From Escherichia coli (GTDB lineage: Bacteria > Pseudomonadota > Gammaproteobacteria > Enterobacterales > Enterobacteriaceae): 64,000 bases of DNA. How positions within the stretch are numbered: the first letter of the stretch is position 1; the number at the start of each line of letters is the position of its first letter. The translations under genes were made by a program, and so were the position numbers. Under the pieces are notes generated by a model. That model did not search any database and was not told the DNA's origin. It was given only the letters and a program-made list of their open reading frames with translations. Below, in pieces: positions 375 to 27,077 of the stretch. The stretch lies in assembly GCF_965641715.1 (NCBI RefSeq), contig NZ_OZ282453.1; one strand, 5' to 3'.

Positions 375-905
375 ATGATGCAGCATTTAAAAAATATTAA
401 GTCTGGAAATCCTAAAACGAAAGAACAATATCAGCTAACAAAGAATTTTGATGTTATCTGGTTATGGTCCGAAGACGATAAAAACTGGTATGAGGAAGTG
501 AAAAACTTTCAGCCAGACACAATAAAGATTGTTTACGATGCAAATAATATTATTGTCGCCATCACTAAAGATGCCTCCACGCTTAACCCTGAAGGTTTTA
601 GCGTCGTTGAGGTTCCTGATATTACAGCCAACCGCCGCGCTGATGATTCAGGAAAGTGGATGTTTAAGGATGGAGCTGTAGTTAAACGGATTTATACGGC
701 AGACGAACAGCAACAACAAGGCGAATCACAAAAGGCCGCATTGCTTTCCGAAGCTGAATCAGTCATCCAGCCGCTGGAACGCGCTGTCAGGCTGAATATG
801 GCAACAGACGAGGAACGCACACGACTGGAAGCATGGGAACGCTACAGTGTTCTGGTCAGCCGTGTGGATACGGCAAATCCTGAATGGCCACAAAAGCCTG
901 AATAA
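375..905 (+). CDS. Tail fibre assembly protein, alternate copy
   Basis: 176 aa; N-terminus [25 protein letters not shown] is a clear paralogue of the 177-aa assembly protein at 934-1467 on the other strand. Confidence 0.8.
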
Positions 906-933: not shown

Positions 934-1467
934 TCATTCAGGTTGTTCGGGAAATGTTACTGGCAGGCTGGAGGTGTCTGTAGATTCGACTTTCTGCGCA
1001 TAGAGCATCCACTCGGTTAATTTTTGTTTATTCTCGTCGGAAATGATGCCCAGCCGTAGCTGTGAGTCCCATAGCTGGGTTTTATCCCTAACGAGCTGTA
1101 GCAGGCTTTGCTTTTCATTTTCCGCCTGCTGCCTCTGCTCTTCCTCGGTATAAGTTCGCTTTACCACTACGCCATCTTTGAACATCCATTTACCAGAAAT
1201 ATCAGCCCGGCGATTTGCTGTAATATCAGGAACCTCAACGACGCTTGCGCCTTCTGGATTAATTGCTGAAACATCCTTTTCAATACAAATAATAACGTTG
1301 TTGTGGTCATAGACCATTTTCAACGTATCAGGCTGAAAGTTCTTTTGTTCCTCATACCAGTTTTTCCCATCCTCTGTATAAAGCCATTTGATGTTAAATT
1401 GTTTCGTTAGCTGGTATTGCTCTTTTGTTTTAGGGTTGCCAGCAGTAATATTTTTTAAGTGCATCAT
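934..1467 (-). CDS. Tail fibre assembly protein (P2 gpG-like)
   Basis: 177 aa directly downstream of the tail fibre gene, same strand; Tfa-like N-terminus [20 protein letters not shown]. Confidence 0.85.
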
Positions 1468-14617: not shown

Positions 14618-15141
14618 CGCGCTTCGCTTGTCTGCTGCTTCGCCGGGGCATAAAAAATTTATGCCCCGACTCTCCAGCTCCTGTATCAATCAGATAATTT
14701 CACGACGTCTTCCAGCTTATCGCCATCATCGACGGTCAGGCTCTTACGCAATCCCACCGCGTTGACTGCATGTTCTTGCCGCCTCAGTGCGATTTTGACG
14801 GCCTTATCTGTCACCCCATCAAATCAAAAGCCCTCACGCCTTTTTCACGCTCAGTGTGAGAAATACAGCCATTCTGTTGTGTCGCTGCGACATCGTTCAG
14901 GGAATGCTATTTACCCCCTGAAACGCGGGCTGTTCCCCCGTCACCTGCGCGCAGAAAAAACGCGTTTTTTTGTGCACGCACGGATCCTTGACGGATCCAG
15001 TCGCCACGCGGGCCGGAAGGGTAAAAAGTTGTTCAAAAAAATTGTGCAAATTTGTGCACTATTGTGCGGTGTATAAAATGAAAATATGGCGGTGTTATTA
15101 CTGCCCAACAAGCCGTTATACTTACGTTATGGGCGTGCATA
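14618..15141. other. Non-coding interval where cos and the packaging site are expected by P2 synteny; cos itself not identified
   Basis: Lies between portal stop and phd start; contains inverted repeat GGGGCATAAA/TTTATGCCCC (14645-14667), palindromes CTGCGCGCAG and A6CGCGT6 (14945-14970), two GGATCC sites 11 bp apart and TTGTGC repeats. Confidence 0.3.
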
Positions 15142-15498
15142 ATGGAAATGAATATGAAAACTGTAACTGATGATGAATTTCGTGAGAACCTGAGTGAAAT
15201 TCTGGATTACCTTTCTTCCGGTGGCAGTGTCGTTATCACGGCGCAGGGAGGGAAGGATGTTGTTCTTGCTGGTTCTGATCTTAGTCCTGAAATACGGGCT
15301 GTCCTTGGCAAAACCAAAAAACTGCGGGATCAAATAAACAAAATGAAGCAACCACTCTTAATAAATGCAGTGAGAGATCTGGAAAAACGTCATCCAGCTC
15401 TTGTCGCACAGAGAAAAAAAGGATTGTCTTTTGAAGATGCAATGAAGCGTACAAGAGAAAAACATGCGGATATCATTAAAAAGCTTGAGGATAACTGA
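15142..15498 (+). CDS. phd: Phd/YefM-family antitoxin (118 aa, C-terminally extended)
   Basis: N-terminus ...KTVTDDEFRENLSEILDYLSSGGSVVITAQGGKDVVLAGSD has the Phd/YefM pattern; stop overlaps the doc start (ATGA at 15498). Confidence 0.7.
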   Translation: MEMNMKTVTDDEFRENLSEILDYLSSGGSVVITAQGGKDVVLAGSDLSPEIRAVLGKTKKLRDQINKMKQPLLINAVRDLEKRHPALVAQRKKGLSFEDAMKRTREKHADIIKKLEDN

Positions 15499-15905
15499 TG
15501 GACATAGTGTTTTTGTCAAAAGAACAAGTAGAACGTATCCATGCTGAAACTTTACCCCAGAGCGGAAATGCCAATGACGGGCTACTTGAAGGTGCTTTAA
15601 ATCGCGTCAGGACACTACACTACTATGAAGGGGTTGATGATATTCATGCTCTGGCTGCTATGTATTTGATTGGTATAGCCAAGGCTCATGCCTTTCATGA
15701 TGGGAATAAACGCACAGCTTTTCAGGCTGCATCAATATTTTTAATGATGAACTCTTCCGAACTTTCAAACTCCCTGCTGCTGGTTAAATTAACGGTGTTT
15801 TCAGCAATGGGGATAGCTACCCTTGAGGAAGTTACCTTTGCTTTGAAATTGCTGTCTGATTATGGCAATGAATTAATCAGCGACTACGAAGAAGATTATA
15901 TTTAA
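15498..15905 (+). CDS. doc: Doc-family toxin (Fic fold)
   Basis: 135 aa; Fic/Doc signature HAFHDGNKRTA present; coupled to the upstream antitoxin. Confidence 0.85.
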   Translation: MDIVFLSKEQVERIHAETLPQSGNANDGLLEGALNRVRTLHYYEGVDDIHALAAMYLIGIAKAHAFHDGNKRTAFQAASIFLMMNSSELSNSLLLVKLTVFSAMGIATLEEVTFALKLLSDYGNELISDYEEDYI

Positions 15906-16071
15906 TGCTGGCATACTCTGTCGTGTTAAGACAACAGCCTTTGCGGAGACAGGGCAGGGTGCCAGACTTGCCCGCAGCGCGTCTGACATGAGCAGTTATT
16001 CATCTTTTTTATTGTTTTTCTCCATGCAGGGCGACAGTGCGCCCCGATAAAATTAAAAGCCGTCAAATTCG

Positions 16072-16407
16072 TCATTCATGCGTTTTTTCTTCATGGTCTG
16101 TCACTTCTCTCCTGATAACTTCATTGCACAAATCAACGCACTCATTGCAGATGTAAACAGACGGTCCGGCAATCACCTTTGTGACTTCGTACTGGGATTT
16201 ATTGCAGAAGCTGCAATAAATCGTCTCCTCACCTGAAGTCCATGTTTTGCTGGTTTCGCCAGACATCAGTTGTTTGAGGTCTTTTTCACGACGAAGAACT
16301 ATCTGGCCACATTCAGCTATTTTTTGGATGTTGACATTTTCTTCTTTCGCCAGCGCTTCCATCCGCTCAATCAGTCGCTGCGCTTTTTCTCTGTCAATGC
16401 GTTGCAT
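16072..16407 (-). CDS. Small protein with C-terminal ClpX-type C4 zinc-binding domain
   Basis: 111 aa; C-terminus [36 protein letters not shown] matches the ClpX N-domain (LYCSFCGKSQHEV...YICDECVDLCNDII); N-terminal half predicted helical/charged. Confidence 0.7.
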
Positions 16408-16470
16408 TGTGTCCCCCTTGTTTATGTTCCCGGGTTAAAGTCATCAGGGCGGATGCGCCCTGATGTTGTG

Positions 16471-16782
16471 TTATTCGGGAAATAACGCCCGGATATTTCC
16501 GGCCATCTGACTGGTTATCTGTGCGGTTGATACTGGCTGTGACGCGGGGCGTTCTGTCCTGGTTTGTGTCACTGATAACGCTTCATCATCAGCCCATGCA
16601 GCCAGTCGGTAAGCCTCTGCCGGATTCATTTTCAGAAGTGCCAGCCCGGCCAGAAAAGCCACGCGTTGGCCGCTTTTGCGCGCTTCTGGTGTAAGGCTGT
16701 CCAGCCAGGCGCATGCTTCACCTTCGTTCTTGACGGCGGCGGGCTTCAGATAGAAACTTATCCGTCTGGTTGGAGTCGTCAT
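16471..16782 (-). CDS. parR: ParR-like DNA-binding partition adaptor; start at ATG 16782
   Basis: 103 aa from MTTPTRRISFYLKPAAV...; aligns with what I recall of R1 ParR (RRTIAFKLNPDV...LDS...AGLAL); ATG lies 5 nt after the parM stop, with AGGAG upstream. Confidence 0.55.
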   Translation of the reverse strand: MTTPTRRISFYLKPAAVKNEGEACAWLDSLTPEARKSGQRVAFLAGLALLKMNPAEAYRLAAWADDEALSVTQTRTERPASQPVSTAQITSQMAGNIRALFPE

Positions 16783-16786
16783 TGGT

Positions 16787-17746
16787 TTACTCCTTGTCCA
16801 TTGCGTACAGCCCATTAACCAGAGCAAACTGTGGCACCCCGTCCGCGATGAAAGTCGCATTAACTCCGCAGGCTTCGCGGATAGCGGGTGCCACAATCTC
16901 CGCCCCGCCACCGACAACCATCACCCGCCCGTAACCCGAAAAAACCGCCAGCGCGCGGATCACGCGTTGTTTCAGTGTTTCTTCCTTTTCACGAATAACC
17001 GCCATCAGGCTGGCGTAATGCGCGTCATTGTGGATGTGCTGGCGCAACCAGGCTTCATCATGGCGATGTTCGATAATGGTATTGGCGATGTGGTGACTGA
17101 TACGCATACCGTTAGTGGCCATCACCGACAGTACGGCATCGGCCATCAGGGAAACGCCTACGTGTGGATCGCAAAACACCTGGCTGATACCTGCCAGTTG
17201 CCCCTGAACCTTTGCCACATCCAGTGTGGTTCCGCCCAAATCCACAATCAGCAGGGATTCAAGCGGACTCATGTCAGCCAGTGCTTTAAAGCCAGCCGGA
17301 ATGGATTCAGGCATAACCCGTACGTTACGGATAGTGAATGTTTCGCCGTTCTGGTACTCCACCGGGCGCATAACGTTCGCTTTTTTGCGGCTGATGTTGG
17401 CCATGTCCGGCTGTGCGTTTGTGTCGAAATACTCGCTCAATGGCAGGGTGACAACCACATCCACCTCCTGTGGCGTGATGCCTGATTTGACCAGCGCGTG
17501 ATGAATGGCAATGACATTCACATCGCTGTACTGGTATTGCGTGTCGGTCGTCTGGACAAAGCGATCGCTGACCGGATCAAAACCATAGCGCACGCCATCA
17601 AGCATGTAGTTCGCGGGCTGCGAGCCACCGAACGGCGCAGACCATTCCGACTTGAAGCTGTTCGGGCTGATGGCGTTGCGGCGTTCGCCGTTCTCAGTCC
17701 ATGCCAGCTTGATGTTGGTGGAGCCGTCGTCGATACAAATTTTCAT
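16787..17746 (-). CDS. parM: ParM/StbA actin-like partition ATPase
   Basis: 319 aa; MKICIDDGSTNIKL..., ISPNSF, YSDVNV, KKAN, FTI.NV.VMPESIPAG, DLGGTTLD and VMV.GGGAE blocks parallel plasmid R1 ParM. Confidence 0.9.
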   Translation of the reverse strand: MKICIDDGSTNIKLAWTENGERRNAISPNSFKSEWSAPFGGSQPANYMLDGVRYGFDPVSDRFVQTTDTQYQYSDVNVIAIHHALVKSGITPQEVDVVVTLPLSEYFDTNAQPDMANISRKKANVMRPVEYQNGETFTIRNVRVMPESIPAGFKALADMSPLESLLIVDLGGTTLDVAKVQGQLAGISQVFCDPHVGVSLMADAVLSVMATNGMRISHHIANTIIEHRHDEAWLRQHIHNDAHYASLMAVIREKEETLKQRVIRALAVFSGYGRVMVVGGGAEIVAPAIREACGVNATFIADGVPQFALVNGLYAMDKE

Positions 17747-17783
17747 GTCGCTTTTCCTTATGTTGATTAATTAATCGTTTACA

Positions 17784-17890
17784 GGATTTTTAAATCCCGC
17801 TTTTGCCTGTTTTGTGCGCGCTTCATATATCGCGGCACGTTTTTTGCTCATTTATGGGATTTGTGAATCCCGTTTCTGTCTGTTTTTTGT
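17784..17890. repeat. Two imperfect 33-bp direct repeats, each with a GGGATT/AATCCC hairpin and T-run, upstream of parM and overlapping the 3' end of gene A
   Basis: GGATTTTTAAATCCCGCTTTTGCCTGTTTTGTG (17784-17816) and GGATTTGTGAATCCCGTTTCTGTCTGTTTTTTGT (17857-17890). Confidence 0.5.
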
Positions 17891-20645
17891 TTCCACTGGT
17901 CAGGCCACCCCGCAGCAGGTCTGCTTTGCGGCTGGCGCGTTCAGTGGTTTCACTGATTCTCTGTGCGTGCTCTGCGTCGCGGATGGCGCGCAGCATGTCA
18001 GAAAGCACGGTAACGGGTGTTTTCATGGTGTTCTGGTCCTGCTGAAGTGTGGATGCCAGGCGTGCGGCGGCTTCAGGGTCTGATGCCCCCAGCTGTGCCA
18101 GATAGCTGGCGACCGGGTTATGGCGGATCTCCGTGCTGCTTACGCCATGATTACGGCTCAGGCGCTGCCAGAGCTGCGTGATTCGGCTGTCCGGGCGGGT
18201 ATCCGGTTTGCGTACAATTTCAAATCCCTGCGGTGCAATGATGCTGCCGTCAACGTACAGACTGCCGCCCCGTAACAGGTGCTGCATCTGTTGTTCACCG
18301 ATATGCAGGCCGAGAGATTCAGCAGACTCCCGCCATTCTTTAGCGAGTAATTCGTGGTTATCAGGCAAAGGCCGTGGCTGTTTGCGGCTCTGTGTCCAGC
18401 TCTGCATTTCATCACTGCTGTTTTTTGCCTGTTTGTCACGAAGCGAACGCATCAGCGCCCGGCGTTCGTGCCGTTTCAGTGAGCGCATCCATTCGTTCAC
18501 GTCAACGCCGTCAGGAAGCTGCGGCCACGGTGCTGGCCGTTCTTTCGACTGTTCTGTCCCGCTGTTGCCTGTTTCCTGTACACGGGGACAGTTATTGCCA
18601 CGAGTCCAAGGGGCGGCAGGGCCGCCCTGAAGGTCAAAACCATTTTCGCGGGCGCTGTCTTCCGTTTCCGGTTTACGTCTTACCAGTTTCCAGTTATCCG
18701 GATGCGTGCACACACGGGAGGATTCCCCGATGAGTGGTGACCAGATCCCGTAAATCTGTACGCTCTGTTCGCCGTAATCATTCAGCTCATCTGCGAGGTC
18801 GTAGGCGGTGCGAATCAGGTAGTCTTTGCGTGGAACAAGTACGCCGCCCTGTTTTTCAATGTAGGTGGCAAAACACCCGGCATCGGCGGCAGCGAGTACC
18901 GCATCCATTGCGTCATCTTTCAGTCGTTGCGGGCCTTCCGGGTTGCGTGCCATCTGGCTGGCAAGGCGGCGCAGTTCACGCCACACCTGACGGGAGGGGA
19001 TGCCAAAGAACTGGAACTGGCGGACCCGATGAAGGCGCGCCCAGCCGATGGCGCGCTCCACACTCTCGGCCATTGATTTTCCGGTTTCGTGGTCAACGCG
19101 TGGCTTGCCCGTTTTCGGGTCGATGCCATCCACGGCGCGGCTGTCCAGGTTCTTTCCGATGTAGGTCGCGATATAGCTGGTTGGTGTGCCTTTTGAGCCG
19201 TCGACATACTCCGCCTTAAAGCGCGGAGTAATATCATTGCCCAGCTCGTGGCGGTCTTCCTGAATGGCAATATCGCGGGTGATGGCCACGATGCTGTCGA
19301 TTTCTTCCGGATGAGCAAAGACCATCATATGCCAGTGCACGGTGCCGTCATGGTGAGGCTCCACCGTGCGGATGCCATACCAGCGAAGACCGTCGCGGTT
19401 CAGTTTTTTGCGGACCGCCGCAAAAAACGTGTTAACCAGGTAATCGCTGGAGTCGCGCATGGTGGCCCCGTTCCATTTGGGATTCGGATGACCGTTCTCT
19501 GTTGTGGCGTGGTATTTTGACGGGCAGGTGACAGTCAGAAACACCGCTTTGTCGCCACGGGCTTCGGCCAGAAGTTCCAGCCCCTTCATGGTGGCCATCA
19601 TTTCTGCCTTACGGTGAACCGGGTTACTTACTCCCGCGTAATACACCGTCTCGAGATCAATCGTGAACCCGTCTTCATTTTCCAGCATGAAACTTTTCAG
19701 GAAATCGCGTGTTTTCTCGCGCTGTGCGCGAAACTCGCTTAACGCGTCCTGGCTCAGATAGGGCGATGTTTTTCTGGAAACCAGACAGGCGGCGCGGAGT
19801 TGTTCTTCTCTCCACTCGCAACGTAACAGCCACAGTTTGCGTTTCCACCATTCTGCACAGGTCAGGCGAAGGATTGCGCCCGGCAGCAGCTCCGTGTCCG
19901 GTTCGTTCCTCTGGTCTTTGTCTGTTGTCAGTGCGTCATAATGTGGAGGCATGGCGTGCAGGTGTAACGCCATGCGGGCCAGCATCTGATACGCCTTCAG
20001 CGTTACATCCATGGTCAGTTCGCCATCGGTCGCGCCAAAGCCATCGCAGAGTTTTTCGAAGGTGCTGCTGAACATCGCCGCCGTCATGGTGGCCAGTGTC
20101 TGTATCTGGTGTTTGTTGAGCTGCGGCAGGTAAAGCAAATCGTCCAGGCGTTCGCGTCCGGCAAGGGAGCGATAACCCTGTGTCAGCCAGCGGTGATCGG
20201 TGCGCTCCAGACGTTCGAATATTTTGCGCAGGTTTCCGCGCGCGTAGCGTTCAGCCTGCCAGCTCTTTTTGCCTTTCTGACGATCGGCTTCCTGTTTTTT
20301 GCGCAGGAAGGAGAGGTGGCGAATAAGCGGATCGCGCAGATAGGACGGCAGCAGGCGCAGCGAGGCCATGGCTTCATCCACCGCGCCGCGTGCCTGTTTT
20401 CTGGCATCTCCTGCCAGTGTGATGGTTTTGTCCTGTTTTTCCTGTGCGTCCAGGCTTTTATTAATCAGGTTGCCCAGCGGCGTTGCGGAGAACGCCGCAT
20501 CAGCCATTTCCTGGCGGTGCTCGTTCTCTACCCGGTAGGCATCCAGCCAGGAGGAAAGCGCGGATTCAGGAGCGGGGATCCCCGTTCCTTCACGCCCCAC
20601 TGCGTGGCGCGGTTGTTGCCAGTCCCTGATGTACTCTGCCGTCAT
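17823..20645 (-). CDS. Replication initiation protein (P2 gpA-like rolling-circle endonuclease)
   Basis: 940 aa; P2 A position; HUH-like motif ...HHDGTVHWHMMVF...; translationally coupled to the upstream 121-aa ORF. Confidence 0.65.
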   Translation of the reverse strand: MTAEYIRDWQQPRHAVGREGTGIPAPESALSSWLDAYRVENEHRQEMADAAFSATPLGNLINKSLDAQEKQDKTITLAGDARKQARGAVDEAMASLRLLPSYLRDPLIRHLSFLRKKQEADRQKGKKSWQAERYARGNLRKIFERLERTDHRWLTQGYRSLAGRERLDDLLYLPQLNKHQIQTLATMTAAMFSSTFEKLCDGFGATDGELTMDVTLKAYQMLARMALHLHAMPPHYDALTTDKDQRNEPDTELLPGAILRLTCAEWWKRKLWLLRCEWREEQLRAACLVSRKTSPYLSQDALSEFRAQREKTRDFLKSFMLENEDGFTIDLETVYYAGVSNPVHRKAEMMATMKGLELLAEARGDKAVFLTVTCPSKYHATTENGHPNPKWNGATMRDSSDYLVNTFFAAVRKKLNRDGLRWYGIRTVEPHHDGTVHWHMMVFAHPEEIDSIVAITRDIAIQEDRHELGNDITPRFKAEYVDGSKGTPTSYIATYIGKNLDSRAVDGIDPKTGKPRVDHETGKSMAESVERAIGWARLHRVRQFQFFGIPSRQVWRELRRLASQMARNPEGPQRLKDDAMDAVLAAADAGCFATYIEKQGGVLVPRKDYLIRTAYDLADELNDYGEQSVQIYGIWSPLIGESSRVCTHPDNWKLVRRKPETEDSARENGFDLQGGPAAPWTRGNNCPRVQETGNSGTEQSKERPAPWPQLPDGVDVNEWMRSLKRHERRALMRSLRDKQAKNSSDEMQSWTQSRKQPRPLPDNHELLAKEWRESAESLGLHIGEQQMQHLLRGGSLYVDGSIIAPQGFEIVRKPDTRPDSRITQLWQRLSRNHGVSSTEIRHNPVASYLAQLGASDPEAAARLASTLQQDQNTMKTPVTVLSDMLRAIRDAEHAQRISETTERASRKADLLRGGLTSGNKKQTETGFTNPINEQKTCRDI

Positions 20646-23938: not shown

Positions 23939-24226
23939 CTAAAGTCCCAGCCACAACAACCATGCGTCGCGGCGTTCTTTCGGTTGCTCAAAAAACGCTT
24001 TGCGCATGCCTTCGTTAAATGCTGGCAGATATACCCAGTTTTCTGATGCACGCGTCTTTACTGAACCTGGTTTCACAAAGTCAATTGTCGGTAGCTTTGC
24101 TGCGTCAATCATGGTTCTGACTGTGGATTCCTTGCGGCCGATCATCTTGGCGAATAGTTGATATGGCACCGCTTCAAGTGGATATGGTGCTACCTGAATG
24201 AACCCCCCAAGCTCTGATTCGCTCAT
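23939..24226 (-). CDS. cox: Cox-like regulator/excisionase
   Basis: 95 aa; PYQLFAKMIGRKESTVRTMID...LPTIDFV...NWVYLPAFNEG...RDAWLLWLGL parallels P2 Cox as I recall it; divergent from C. Confidence 0.8.
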   Translation of the reverse strand: MSESELGGFIQVAPYPLEAVPYQLFAKMIGRKESTVRTMIDAAKLPTIDFVKPGSVKTRASENWVYLPAFNEGMRKAFFEQPKERRDAWLLWLGL

Positions 24227-24339: not shown

Positions 24340-24660
24340 ATGGCATCTTTGTCAAGCATGGGTGAAAAATTTCGCCTGATTCGTGAAGCAGAAGGTATGA
24401 CCCGCCAGGAGTTTGCGGATTGTGTTGGGCTGCCTTATGGGACGGTAACTAACTATGAGGTGAGGGGGAAGCAAGTAACAGAGGGTGCCTTACTTAAGGT
24501 TACGAAACACCCTAAATTTAAGAAGTATGCTTATTGGTTATCAACAGATGAAACGATGCCGGAGGTCGGGCAAATTTCTCCGGCTCTCTCTCTTGATGGT
24601 TCCTGCAATTCGGAGGGAGATCGCGTTTCAACCGAAAAAATCCAAAAATTATCCCGCTGA
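24340..24660 (+). CDS. C-type immunity repressor (HTH); start among in-frame ATGs 24322/24331/24340
   Basis: HTH segment QEFADCVGLPYGTVTNYE and ...KYAYWLSTDETMPEVGQISPAL resemble P2 C as I recall it; same strand as int. Confidence 0.7.
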   Translation: MASLSSMGEKFRLIREAEGMTRQEFADCVGLPYGTVTNYEVRGKQVTEGALLKVTKHPKFKKYAYWLSTDETMPEVGQISPALSLDGSCNSEGDRVSTEKIQKLSR

Positions 24661-24756: not shown

Positions 24757-25761
24757 ATGTCGATTAAGAAGCTCGAAGATGGTCGTTATTTGCTGGACAT
24801 CAGGCCGAACGGACGCAAGGGAAAGCGCGTGCGTAAGGTATTTGACAAAAAATCGGTAGCGGTGGCCACTGAACGCTACATCATGGCGAACGCTGAAAAG
24901 CGGGAATATATACAGGGCTACCGTGATCGTCGAACGCTAAATGATTTGCTTGAGTTGTGGTGGATGTATCACGGCCAGCACAGGCGTAAGGCGGAAGAAG
25001 ACCGAAAACAACTGCGCAACATAATCAATGAGCTTGGCGCTGATATGCAGGCTGTGGATCTTGATAAGCTGAAAATTATCGCGTGGCGTTCTCAAAAGAT
25101 AGCTGAAGGATTGAAACCGTCATCTGCTAACAGGTACATGAATCGGTTATCCGGAATGTTTACCGTGCTGAAAAAAATAGGTCTTTGGGATGCAGAACAT
25201 CCAGTAAGGGGAATTTCTATTCTTTATGTATCTCCACGAGAAATGGCGTTCCTGTCACAGAAGGAAGTGGCGCTATTGCTCGATACACTGGAGGGCGACT
25301 ACTGGCGTGTTGCGCTTTTGTGTTTAAGCACAGGGGCGCGCTGGAGTGAAGCTTGTAAGCTTCGTGGTGAACAGATAGTTCATAACCGTGTAACGTTTCT
25401 TGAAACCAAAAATGGCCGGAAGAGAACAGTGCCAATTTCGCAGGCAGTTTGTGAGGCGATCAAAACCAGAGAAACAGGCGGCTTGTTTGAGGTGAAGTAC
25501 CGGGAATTCTGCCTGGCGCTGAAAAGAGTTAAGCCCGACTTACCAAAAGGCCAGGCTGCACATGTGCTGCGGCATACGTTCGCCAGCCATTTTGTGATGA
25601 ACGGAGGAAACATTATTGCGCTTCAGAAGATTCTTGGTCACGCAACCATTCAGCAAACAATGGCATATGCGCATTTTGCACCGGATTACCTGCAGGATGC
25701 GGTGGCCCTTAATCCGCTGAAAGGTGGCGTAAGTGTCCACGCAGTGTCCACGGGGGATTAA
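24757..25761 (+). CDS. int: Tyrosine integrase, P2 type
   Basis: MSIKKLEDGRYLLDIRPNGRKGKRVRKVFDKKS... parallels the P2 Int N-terminus; ATG 24757 preceded by GGAGGG; C-terminal catalytic region HVLRHTFASHFVMNGG...LGH. Confidence 0.9.
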   Translation: MSIKKLEDGRYLLDIRPNGRKGKRVRKVFDKKSVAVATERYIMANAEKREYIQGYRDRRTLNDLLELWWMYHGQHRRKAEEDRKQLRNIINELGADMQAVDLDKLKIIAWRSQKIAEGLKPSSANRYMNRLSGMFTVLKKIGLWDAEHPVRGISILYVSPREMAFLSQKEVALLLDTLEGDYWRVALLCLSTGARWSEACKLRGEQIVHNRVTFLETKNGRKRTVPISQAVCEAIKTRETGGLFEVKYREFCLALKRVKPDLPKGQAAHVLRHTFASHFVMNGGNIIALQKILGHATIQQTMAYAHFAPDYLQDAVALNPLKGGVSVHAVSTGD

Positions 25762-25919
25762 TTTTATATAGCCTGAAACGGCTTAAAGGGCGATACTGAA
25801 TAACAATTTTTCAGTATTGCCCGTCTAAATGGTTATGTTGTTATCTGTATGATTATTAATGTTTTTTCAGATTAAACAGCAGTTTGCAAATGGGCGTTTG
25901 TTGATAAAGGAGCCTTAGA

Positions 25920-27077
25920 TTGTCAGAGACTGAAAAAGGGTTAAAAATCCTTGTTGATGAAAATATGCCTTATGCCCGCGACTTATTTAGCCGTTTGGGT
26001 GAGGTGACCGCGGTTCCCGGGCGTCCAATCCCCGTCGCTCAACTGGCAGACGCGGATGCGCTGATGGTGCGTTCGGTCACGAAAGTGAATGAATCTTTGC
26101 TGGCAGGAAAACCCATTAAATTTGTTGGCACTGCCACTGCGGGGACCGACCATGTCGATGAAGCATGGTTGAAGCAGGCGGGAATTGGTTTTTCCGCTGC
26201 ACCTGGCTGTAATGCGATTGCGGTGGTGGAATATGTTTTCTCCTCCCTGCTGATGCTTGCCGAACGCGATGGATTTTCACTGCACGAGCGTACCGTGGGG
26301 ATCGTGGGCGTTGGTAATGTTGGTCGGCGTTTACAGGCACGACTGGAAGCGTTAGGGATTAAAACCTTGCTTTGCGATCCGCCTCGCGCTGACCGTGGGG
26401 ATGAGGGTGATTTCCGCTCGCTGGATGAATTAGTTCAGCATGCGGATATTCTGACTTTCCATACGCCACTTTTCAAAGACGGGCCGTACAAAACGCTGCA
26501 TCTGGCGGATGAAAAACTGATCCGTAACCTGAAGCCAGGAGCGATTCTGATTAACGCCTGCCGTGGCGCAGTCGTCGATAATACCGCGCTGCTGACCTGC
26601 CTGAATGAAGGCCAGAAGTTAAGCGTAGTGCTGGATGTCTGGGAAGGCGAACCGGAACTTAACGTGGAGTTGCTGACAAAAGTGGATATCGGCACGCCGC
26701 ATATTGCAGGCTATACCCTGGAAGGTAAAGCACGCGGTACTACGCAAGTGTTTGAAGCCTATAGCAAGTTTATTGGGCATGAACAGCACGTTGCGCTGGA
26801 TACATTACTACCCGCGCCAGAGTTTGGTCGCATTACACTGCATGGCCCGCTCGATCAACCGACGCTGAAAAGGCTGGTGCATTTGGTGTATGATGTGCGC
26901 CGCGATGACGCACCGCTGCGTAAAGTCGCCGGGATACCGGGTGAGTTCGATAAACTGCGCAAAAACTATCTTGAGCGCCGTGAATGGTCATCTCTGTATG
27001 TAATTTGTGATGACGCCAGTGCGGCATCATTGCTGTGTAAACTGGGTTTTAACGCCGTTCATCATCCGGCACGTTAA
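25920..27077 (+). CDS. pdxB: Erythronate-4-phosphate dehydrogenase; start codon uncertain (TTG 25920 or ATG 25965)
   Basis: Near-identity over ...[21 protein letters not shown]... to E. coli PdxB as I recall it. Confidence 0.9.

Follow-up and report, generated by a model that had tools for sequence, protein, structure and literature searches.

The window, a 64,000-nucleotide stretch of Escherichia coli DNA, contains the integrase end of a prophage immediately upstream of pdxB (Table 1). The genes next to the junction are laid out as in the P2 family, with cox on the minus strand, then C and int on the plus strand, and then attP, and the relatives of this prophage carry ogr and P2-type structural genes. 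C lies upstream of int and is read in the same direction as int and pdxB. Downstream of pdxB, usg, truA, dedA, accD and folC follow in the K-12 order. A preliminary description of this DNA had placed the end of the integrase at 25761 and the opening of the pdxB frame 158 bp further on, at a TTG with AAGGAG upstream that adds MSETEKG to the protein. The sequence and its open reading frames bear this out (TAA 25759-25761, AAGGAG 25907-25912, TTG 25920), and the native initiator is now read as leucine.

The integrase has the Pfam domains Phage_integrase (PF00589, E 1e-22) and Int_N (PF24624), and the motifs GARWSE, HVLRH, LGH and AYAHF, which carry the R, HxxR, H and Y, are readable in the translation. 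A common core and an integrase catalytic domain, as belong to a tyrosine-integrase attachment system, were thus both found. The amino acid sequence is 100% identical to that of the P88_4B11 integrase, 98.5% identical to that of PhiSM and 53% identical to that of P2, and a tblastn search of phage records returned nothing between 56% and 97.9% identity. At the nucleotide level the int-attR segment is 99.7% identical to P88_4B11, 98.2% to PhiR44_2, 96.8% to Shae_phiSM and 92.3% to Chuche. The match to P88_4B11, together with the P2-type annotation of the related APEC37 prophage (ogr, capsid and terminase), places the element in the Peduoviridae, genus Xuanwuvirus. In blocks, the window is 87-98% identical to the APEC37 prophage.

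Table 1. Features of the prophage-pdxB junction (positions in the window)
Feature	Position	Strand	Remarks
cox-like excisionase/repressor gene	23939-24226	-	"Cox family DNA-binding protein" in the 99.9% identical APEC37 junction
C-type immunity repressor (helix-turn-helix)	24340-24660	+	Helix-turn-helix in APEC37; "C protein" in the PhiSM record
Tyrosine integrase, 334 aa, P2 Int relative	24757-25761	+	ATG 24757, TAA 25759-25761
Putative Int arm-type site, tandem TGTCCAC-N4-TGTCCAC	25734-25751	+	TGTCCACGCAGTGTCCAC, inside the int 3' end; P arm
Phage P arm of attR	25762-25943	+	All phage DNA from the int stop to the core; identical or nearly so in P88_4B11, Chuche and PhiSM
Hairpin, 13-bp stem, GGGCGATACTGAA-N9-TTCAGTATTGCCC	25788-25822	+	dG -21 kcal/mol; without U-tract; between int and core
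Phage Shine-Dalgarno sequence AAGGAG	25907-25912	+	TTG follows after 7 nt; no variation among the P arms examined
pdxB open reading frame in the lysogen, 385 aa	25920-27077	+	Phage MSETEKGL plus native residues 2-378
Phage TTG, most likely pdxB initiation codon (predicted)	25920-25922	+	In frame, open to 27077
TTA (Leu) at the position of the native GTG	25941-25943	+	Alignment of window and native locus
20-bp att identity block	25944-25963	+	pdxB codons 2-7 and first two bases of codon 8; >40 attL junctions
Internal ATG (native Met9), 370-aa product	25965-25967	+	Alternative start, used in most RefSeq annotations

The preliminary description had stated that in K-12 the divergent gene flk lies upstream of pdxB, had noted that flk is missing here, and had proposed an alignment with a prophage-free flk-pdxB region. 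In K-12 MG1655, strain 26561 and other prophage-free strains flk is indeed found 98 bp upstream of pdxB and is divergent from it, and blastn detected neither flk nor yfcJ sequence anywhere in the window. Alignment with the prophage-free regions showed that identity begins with codon 2 of pdxB, at 25944. In K-12 MG1655 and strain 26561 the native start codon is a GTG rather than an ATG, and its place in the window is taken by TTA (Leu). At the junction the native locus reads ...acaaacGTGAAAATCCTTGTTGATGAAAATATG, compared to ...aagggtTAAAAATCCTTGTTGATGAAAATATG in the window; the longer reading is ...caggtaacacaaacGTGAAAATCCTTGTTGATGAAAATATGCC for strain 26561 and K-12 MG1655 and ...gaaaaagggtTAAAAATCCTTGTTGATGAAAATATGCC for the window. 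The whole 98-bp flk-pdxB promoter region and the GTG are absent from the pdxB-side end of the prophage, while in lysogens they are intact at attL, where they are joined to phage DNA. The earlier suggestion that the insertion replaced the native promoter and the 5' end of pdxB is therefore upheld, and the opposite outcome, an intact promoter and start with the core lying further upstream, is excluded by the position of the core inside the coding sequence.

No similarity was seen when the P arm was aligned with the native flk-pdxB intergenic region and the start of pdxB. Because the P arm with its AAGGAG and in-frame TTG is present at attP in free phage genomes, it belongs to the phage and did not arise by rearrangement of host DNA. 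A megablast search with window positions 25500-26300 matched 5425 of 5426 complete E. coli genomes, about 302 of them (302-303) across the junction; the other genomes matched only from query position 445, which corresponds to 25944. A pdxB without its native promoter at this end is thus present in about 1 in 18 complete E. coli genomes and is accounted for by the prophage junction. By sequence comparison, 25762-25963 is the attR of a P88/PhiSM-like (Xuanwuvirus) prophage of the P2 family, located within the first codons of pdxB.

Four-way alignment defined a 20-bp block, AAAATCCTTGTTGATGAAAA (25944-25963), that is common to attB, attP, attL and attR. The arms on either side were exchanged as expected for site-specific integration, both in this alignment and in more than 40 attL and 2 attR junctions from IMG/VR. 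In the free phages P88_4B11, Chuche and PhiSM, attP consists of P arm, core and P' arm. The attL of this strain lies outside the window and the evidence on attL comes from other lysogens: in GN05064, TUM2820 and the more than 40 IMG/VR prophage ends, flk and the native intergenic region are followed by GTGAAAATCCTTGTTGATGAAAA and then by phage DNA. Phages of the P88_4B11 type have G in place of T at position 15 of the block, and the attL junctions L110, L113 and L135 keep the phage G. Strand exchange must therefore take place to the left of position 15, within the 14 bp from 25944 to 25957.

The left end of the prophage had been placed outside the window by the preliminary description, and this was supported by a search for the 24-nt stretch that begins with the core, which is present in a single copy even when up to 3 mismatches are allowed. 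A second copy of the core was sought in the window at the same threshold (<=3 mismatches) and only the attR copy matched. In the relative APEC37 the prophage measures ~37.6 kb from flk to pdxB, compared to ~25.9 kb of prophage in the window. The native promoter and flk are thus about 37 kb away, at the other end of the prophage and outside the window.

Tandem repeats flank the core on both sides. The repeat on the P arm lies within the 3' end of int, and in the attP of P88_4B11 a direct repeat, TGTCCACGCAATGACCAC, is found on the P' arm 276 bp from TGTCCACGCAGTGTCCAC; the same motif is present on the P' arm of attL. From their sequence and placement, the two repeats look like a pair of arm-type binding sites for Int, and the arm sites of P2 Int are similar direct repeats.

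Other features of the P' side were noted at attL of other lysogens (L003 3598-3745, L004 3598-3730). There the native pdxB promoter and GTG, cut off from their gene, lead into an open reading frame of 14 codons (MKILVDEKNDDLIY in GN05064), after which comes a long inverted repeat on the P' arm (GGTAACACAAAGCCCGT...ACGGGCTTTGTGTTATC in GN05064); in the attP of P88_4B11 the repeat is a perfect 19 bp. This inverted repeat would keep transcripts of the native promoter out of the prophage. Between phages, the 10 nt of the P' arm that adjoin the core vary far more than the P arm.

The principle of this integration is already known. Magaziner et al. (2019, J Bacteriol 201:e00638-18; PMC6456863) isolated PhiSM, lysogenised K-12 strains with it, and mapped attP and attB by random-primed PCR and Sanger sequencing to the 17-bp sequence ATCCTTGTTGATGAAAA in the 5' end of K-12 pdxB. 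This core is matched exactly at 25947-25963, inside the 20-bp block. They also noted the phage TTG, the AAGGAG, and a putative -35 (TTGCAA) and -10 (TAAAGG) (PMC6456863). The window prophage resembles PhiSM (Shae_phiSM, OR565851), a Citrobacter rodentium phage of the genus Xuanwuvirus, in having the same 17-bp core in the 5' end of pdxB, and the AAGGAG 7 nt before a TTG that opens an in-frame leader. It differs in that the window represents a natural E. coli lysogen and in that the P arm is changed at 3 positions, all of them upstream of the Shine-Dalgarno sequence. Relative to the published account, the present analysis lengthens the identity block to 20 bp, with retention of the AAA codon, corrects the native start from ATG to GTG, limits the crossover to 14 bp and puts the number of complete E. 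coli genomes with the junction at about 302-303 of 5426. The insertion of PhiSM in C. rodentium is in a traF-like gene, not in pdxB. In literature searches, the PhiSM paper was the only one to describe pdxB as an integration site.

Among other phages, the closest likeness is to P88_4B11 (NC_049391), PhiR44_2 and Chuche, also Xuanwuvirus, which are 92-99.7% identical from int to attP and have the same leader and core in attP. P88_4B11 differs by the T-to-G change at core position 15 and by its P' arm. The original P88 was reported with another attP, GCCACCCGAAGGTG (PMC5285337), and presumably has another integrase; the Int of a P88-named prophage record, PV468777, is 53% identical to that of the window. 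Phage P2 shares the arrangement of cox, C and int beside attP, an Int_N tyrosine integrase and tandem direct repeats on both arms, but its Int is only 53% identical and its core and target are different. To our knowledge, the preferred sites of P2 do not lie at the start of a coding sequence.

In the search for a promoter of pdxB, a consensus scan detected no good sigma-70-like site on the plus strand upstream of the TTG, and a lenient scan gave one weak candidate, with a -10 of TATGAT (25848-25853) and a poor -35. The terminator scan found no terminator-like site between int and pdxB. In P2-type phages C and int are co-transcribed in lysogens, and since pdxB lies on the same strand as these two, read-through into pdxB is plausible. 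Either C-int read-through or a weak P-arm promoter, or the two together, probably supplies the pdxB transcript.

The hairpin between int and the core is kept in all phage relatives; the one change in the stem, C to T, still allows a G-U pair. It was considered as a terminator for int and set aside, as it lacks a U-tract and was not called by the scan. Candidate roles are a weak terminator, an RNA-processing site or a protein-binding palindrome, and the hairpin might limit read-through from int.

A different source of the transcript would be the dedicated sigma-70 promoter of the PhiSM paper, which was predicted with phiSITE (PMC6456863). In the window its -35, TTGCAA, falls at 25884-25889 and its -10, TAAAGG, at 25905-25910, and both elements are invariant in all P arms. 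However, the -10 matches TATAAT at 3 of 6 positions, the spacer is 15 nt, and neither the lenient nor the consensus scan returned the pair. The -10 also overlaps the Shine-Dalgarno sequence at 25907-25912: transcription starting 6-8 nt downstream, at ~25916-25919, would yield a transcript that lacks it. In our reading of the sequence, the published promoter and the published Shine-Dalgarno prediction therefore cannot both hold as stated, and the -10/-35 pair was rejected as the source of an mRNA that contains the Shine-Dalgarno sequence. Transcription of pdxB from this promoter seems unlikely.

It is likewise doubtful, though conceivable, that the P arm is an evolved expression cassette that places PdxB under the C-int transcript of the prophage and couples vitamin B6 synthesis to the immunity state. 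If this were true, genes downstream in pdxB-usg-truA-dedA might be partly affected, and native control would return only on excision.

Translation of pdxB most likely begins in the phage arm. The TTG at 25920 is the sole in-frame ATG, GTG or TTG between the TAA at 25905-25907 and the ATG at 25965. The predicted anti-Shine-Dalgarno duplex has an energy of -7.9 kcal/mol for the phage sequence, compared to -3.9 kcal/mol for the native GTG and -2.4 kcal/mol for the ATG at 25965. The encoded 385-aa protein contains the Pfam domains 2-Hacid_dh, 2-Hacid_dh_C and DUF3410, and it matches Salmonella PdxB (3OET, E 5e-226) from residue 7 onward. When distinct P arms were collected, all 15 variable columns fell within the first 143 nt; the last 40 nt, with the Shine-Dalgarno sequence, the TTG and the leader, had none. 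By a hand estimate, this split has a chance probability of roughly 0.02-0.03, to be read with the fact that the sequences are related. The invariance of the last 40 nt could also partly reflect binding of Int to core-type sites, or recent spread, and not selection for pdxB expression. In dinucleotide shuffles of the P arm an in-frame, stop-free start with an equally strong Shine-Dalgarno sequence arose in 3.6%, and a chance origin of the pair is thus somewhat disfavoured.

Conservation of the leader was also sought across genera. The IMG/VR relatives of the integrase nearly all end at int, and those at 81-88% identity have another site or are incomplete; the nearest relative in a contig scan across genera was 82% identical, with a C-terminus unlike that of the window's Int.

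RefSeq/PGAP models of pdxB in lysogens are split between a 385-aa protein from the phage TTG (WP_000004836.1) and a 370-aa protein from the internal ATG; NZ_AP027946.1 and NZ_CP127303.1 are example records. In a spread sample of 40 lysogens the pdxB coding sequence extends into the phage arm in 10, one of which (VE-F10) was inspected directly and has the 385-aa model from the TTG. It does not do so in the remaining 30, and the four of these that were inspected, APEC37, AJ1, FDAARGOS_943 and 2014C-3011, have the 370-aa model.

Should the shorter model be correct, PdxB would be translated from the ATG at 25965 without residues 1-8, and the upstream TTG and Shine-Dalgarno sequence would be fortuitous. 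This is the start chosen by PGAP in the four strains named and in ~30 of the 40 sampled, a promoter-like TTGTCA-17-AAAAAT at 25920-25948 could give it a nearly leaderless mRNA, and an equally good upstream start did arise in 3.6% of the shuffles. Yet the internal ATG has no Shine-Dalgarno sequence (the -2.4 kcal/mol above), and the Shine-Dalgarno sequence, TTG and leader in front of it are invariant while the rest of the arm varies. A start there would also remove KILVDEN, a segment that is conserved among the PdxB structures of Salmonella, Vibrio and Pseudomonas and that coincides with the first positions of the Pfam catalytic domain; the alignment to the domain profile opens at residue 12 of the 385-aa protein, profile position 3. 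Alignments with Salmonella and Vibrio PdxB run from KIL(V/I)DENMPY, and that with P. aeruginosa PdxB (2O4C) from query residue 9, the same position. As the alignments begin at this segment, a start at Met9 would delete a conserved N-terminal part of the protein, and we regard it as improbable. From these comparisons the phage TTG is the more likely start. The junction explains why two incompatible models of pdxB exist in RefSeq, of which the 370-aa model probably cuts into the catalytic domain.

Taken together, the data are best explained by a recombination of attP with attB in codons 2-8 of pdxB by the phage integrase, after which pdxB is likely made from the phage Shine-Dalgarno sequence and TTG; we hold this account with high confidence. 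Sequence comparison shows that integration moved the native promoter and the GTG to attL, beside flk, and joined the remainder of pdxB to the P arm. The strong Shine-Dalgarno sequence and in-frame TTG of the P arm would then direct synthesis of a 385-aa PdxB in which an 8-residue phage-encoded N-terminus replaces Met1, and the phage-supplied start would keep the host able to make vitamin B6. Excision would restore the attB acaaacGTGAAAATCC, GTG-AAAATCC....

Consistent with this, MG1655(PhiSM) grows like the wild type in M9 glucose, from which the authors concluded that pdxB function is kept (PMC6456863). These prototrophy experiments used PhiSM in K-12 (Int 98.5% identical), not the window prophage; because the 3 differences between the P arms lie outside the Shine-Dalgarno sequence, the TTG and the leader, the result should transfer well. 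It is very improbable that pdxB is effectively inactivated and that lysogens depend on environmental vitamin B6 or on bypass pathways: the native promoter and start codon are physically removed, but K-12 PhiSM lysogens grow in M9 glucose although auxotrophy has been reported for pdxB mutants (PMC6456863), the reading frame that starts at the phage TTG is open, and among about 303 natural genomes with the junction every pdxB inspected is an intact coding sequence and not a pseudogene.

The junction provides a clear example of a phage that targets the 5' end of a housekeeping gene and in all likelihood makes good the loss with translation signals of its own. At the 3' ends of tRNA genes and, in the case of e14 and phage 21, in icd, there are elements that insert into a gene end and bring a replacement for it. 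The prophage resembles these elements in that the core lies inside the gene, the displaced part is supplied and the gene most likely stays functional. It differs in that the 5' end is replaced, and in that the new part, a Shine-Dalgarno sequence, a start codon and 7 additional codons, is unrelated to what was lost. Elements that duplicate a gene end carry a homologous copy of it; none was found here, the P arm being unlike the native upstream region and start of pdxB. Judged on sequence, the prophage works like the gene-end-replacing elements yet is not one of them.

Several other observations concern the prophage away from the junction. Between the portal and replication endonuclease genes is a cargo region (15067-17939) without a match in the APEC37 prophage. 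There is a gene for a Phd-like antitoxin (15142-15498, just under the Pfam gathering score) and one for a Fic/Doc toxin (15498-15905). On the minus strand, a small ClpX-type zinc-finger protein (16072-16407) and an actin-like segregation protein of the ParM/StbA family, at full length (16787-17746, E 3e-81), are encoded. In a P2-like prophage that integrates, a partition ATPase of this plasmid type is unexpected.

Integrases 81-82% identical to that of the window are present on IMG/VR contigs and in Escherichia sp. MOD1-EC7003 (L046-L050, L152). Their C-termini diverge, and downstream of them is not pdxB but a different region with repeated GCGGTTACAA motifs. This group looks like a sister lineage with another attachment site.

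In the APEC37 relative (L151 12271-12870) a gene of the recombinase family, resembling an invertase, lies beside fragments of alternative tail-fibre and assembly genes. The window begins inside the equivalent tail-fibre region, where open reading frames at 375-905 (plus strand) and 934-1467 (minus strand) are opposed. The arrangement in APEC37 and at 375-1467 of the window suggests an invertible segment that determines host range.
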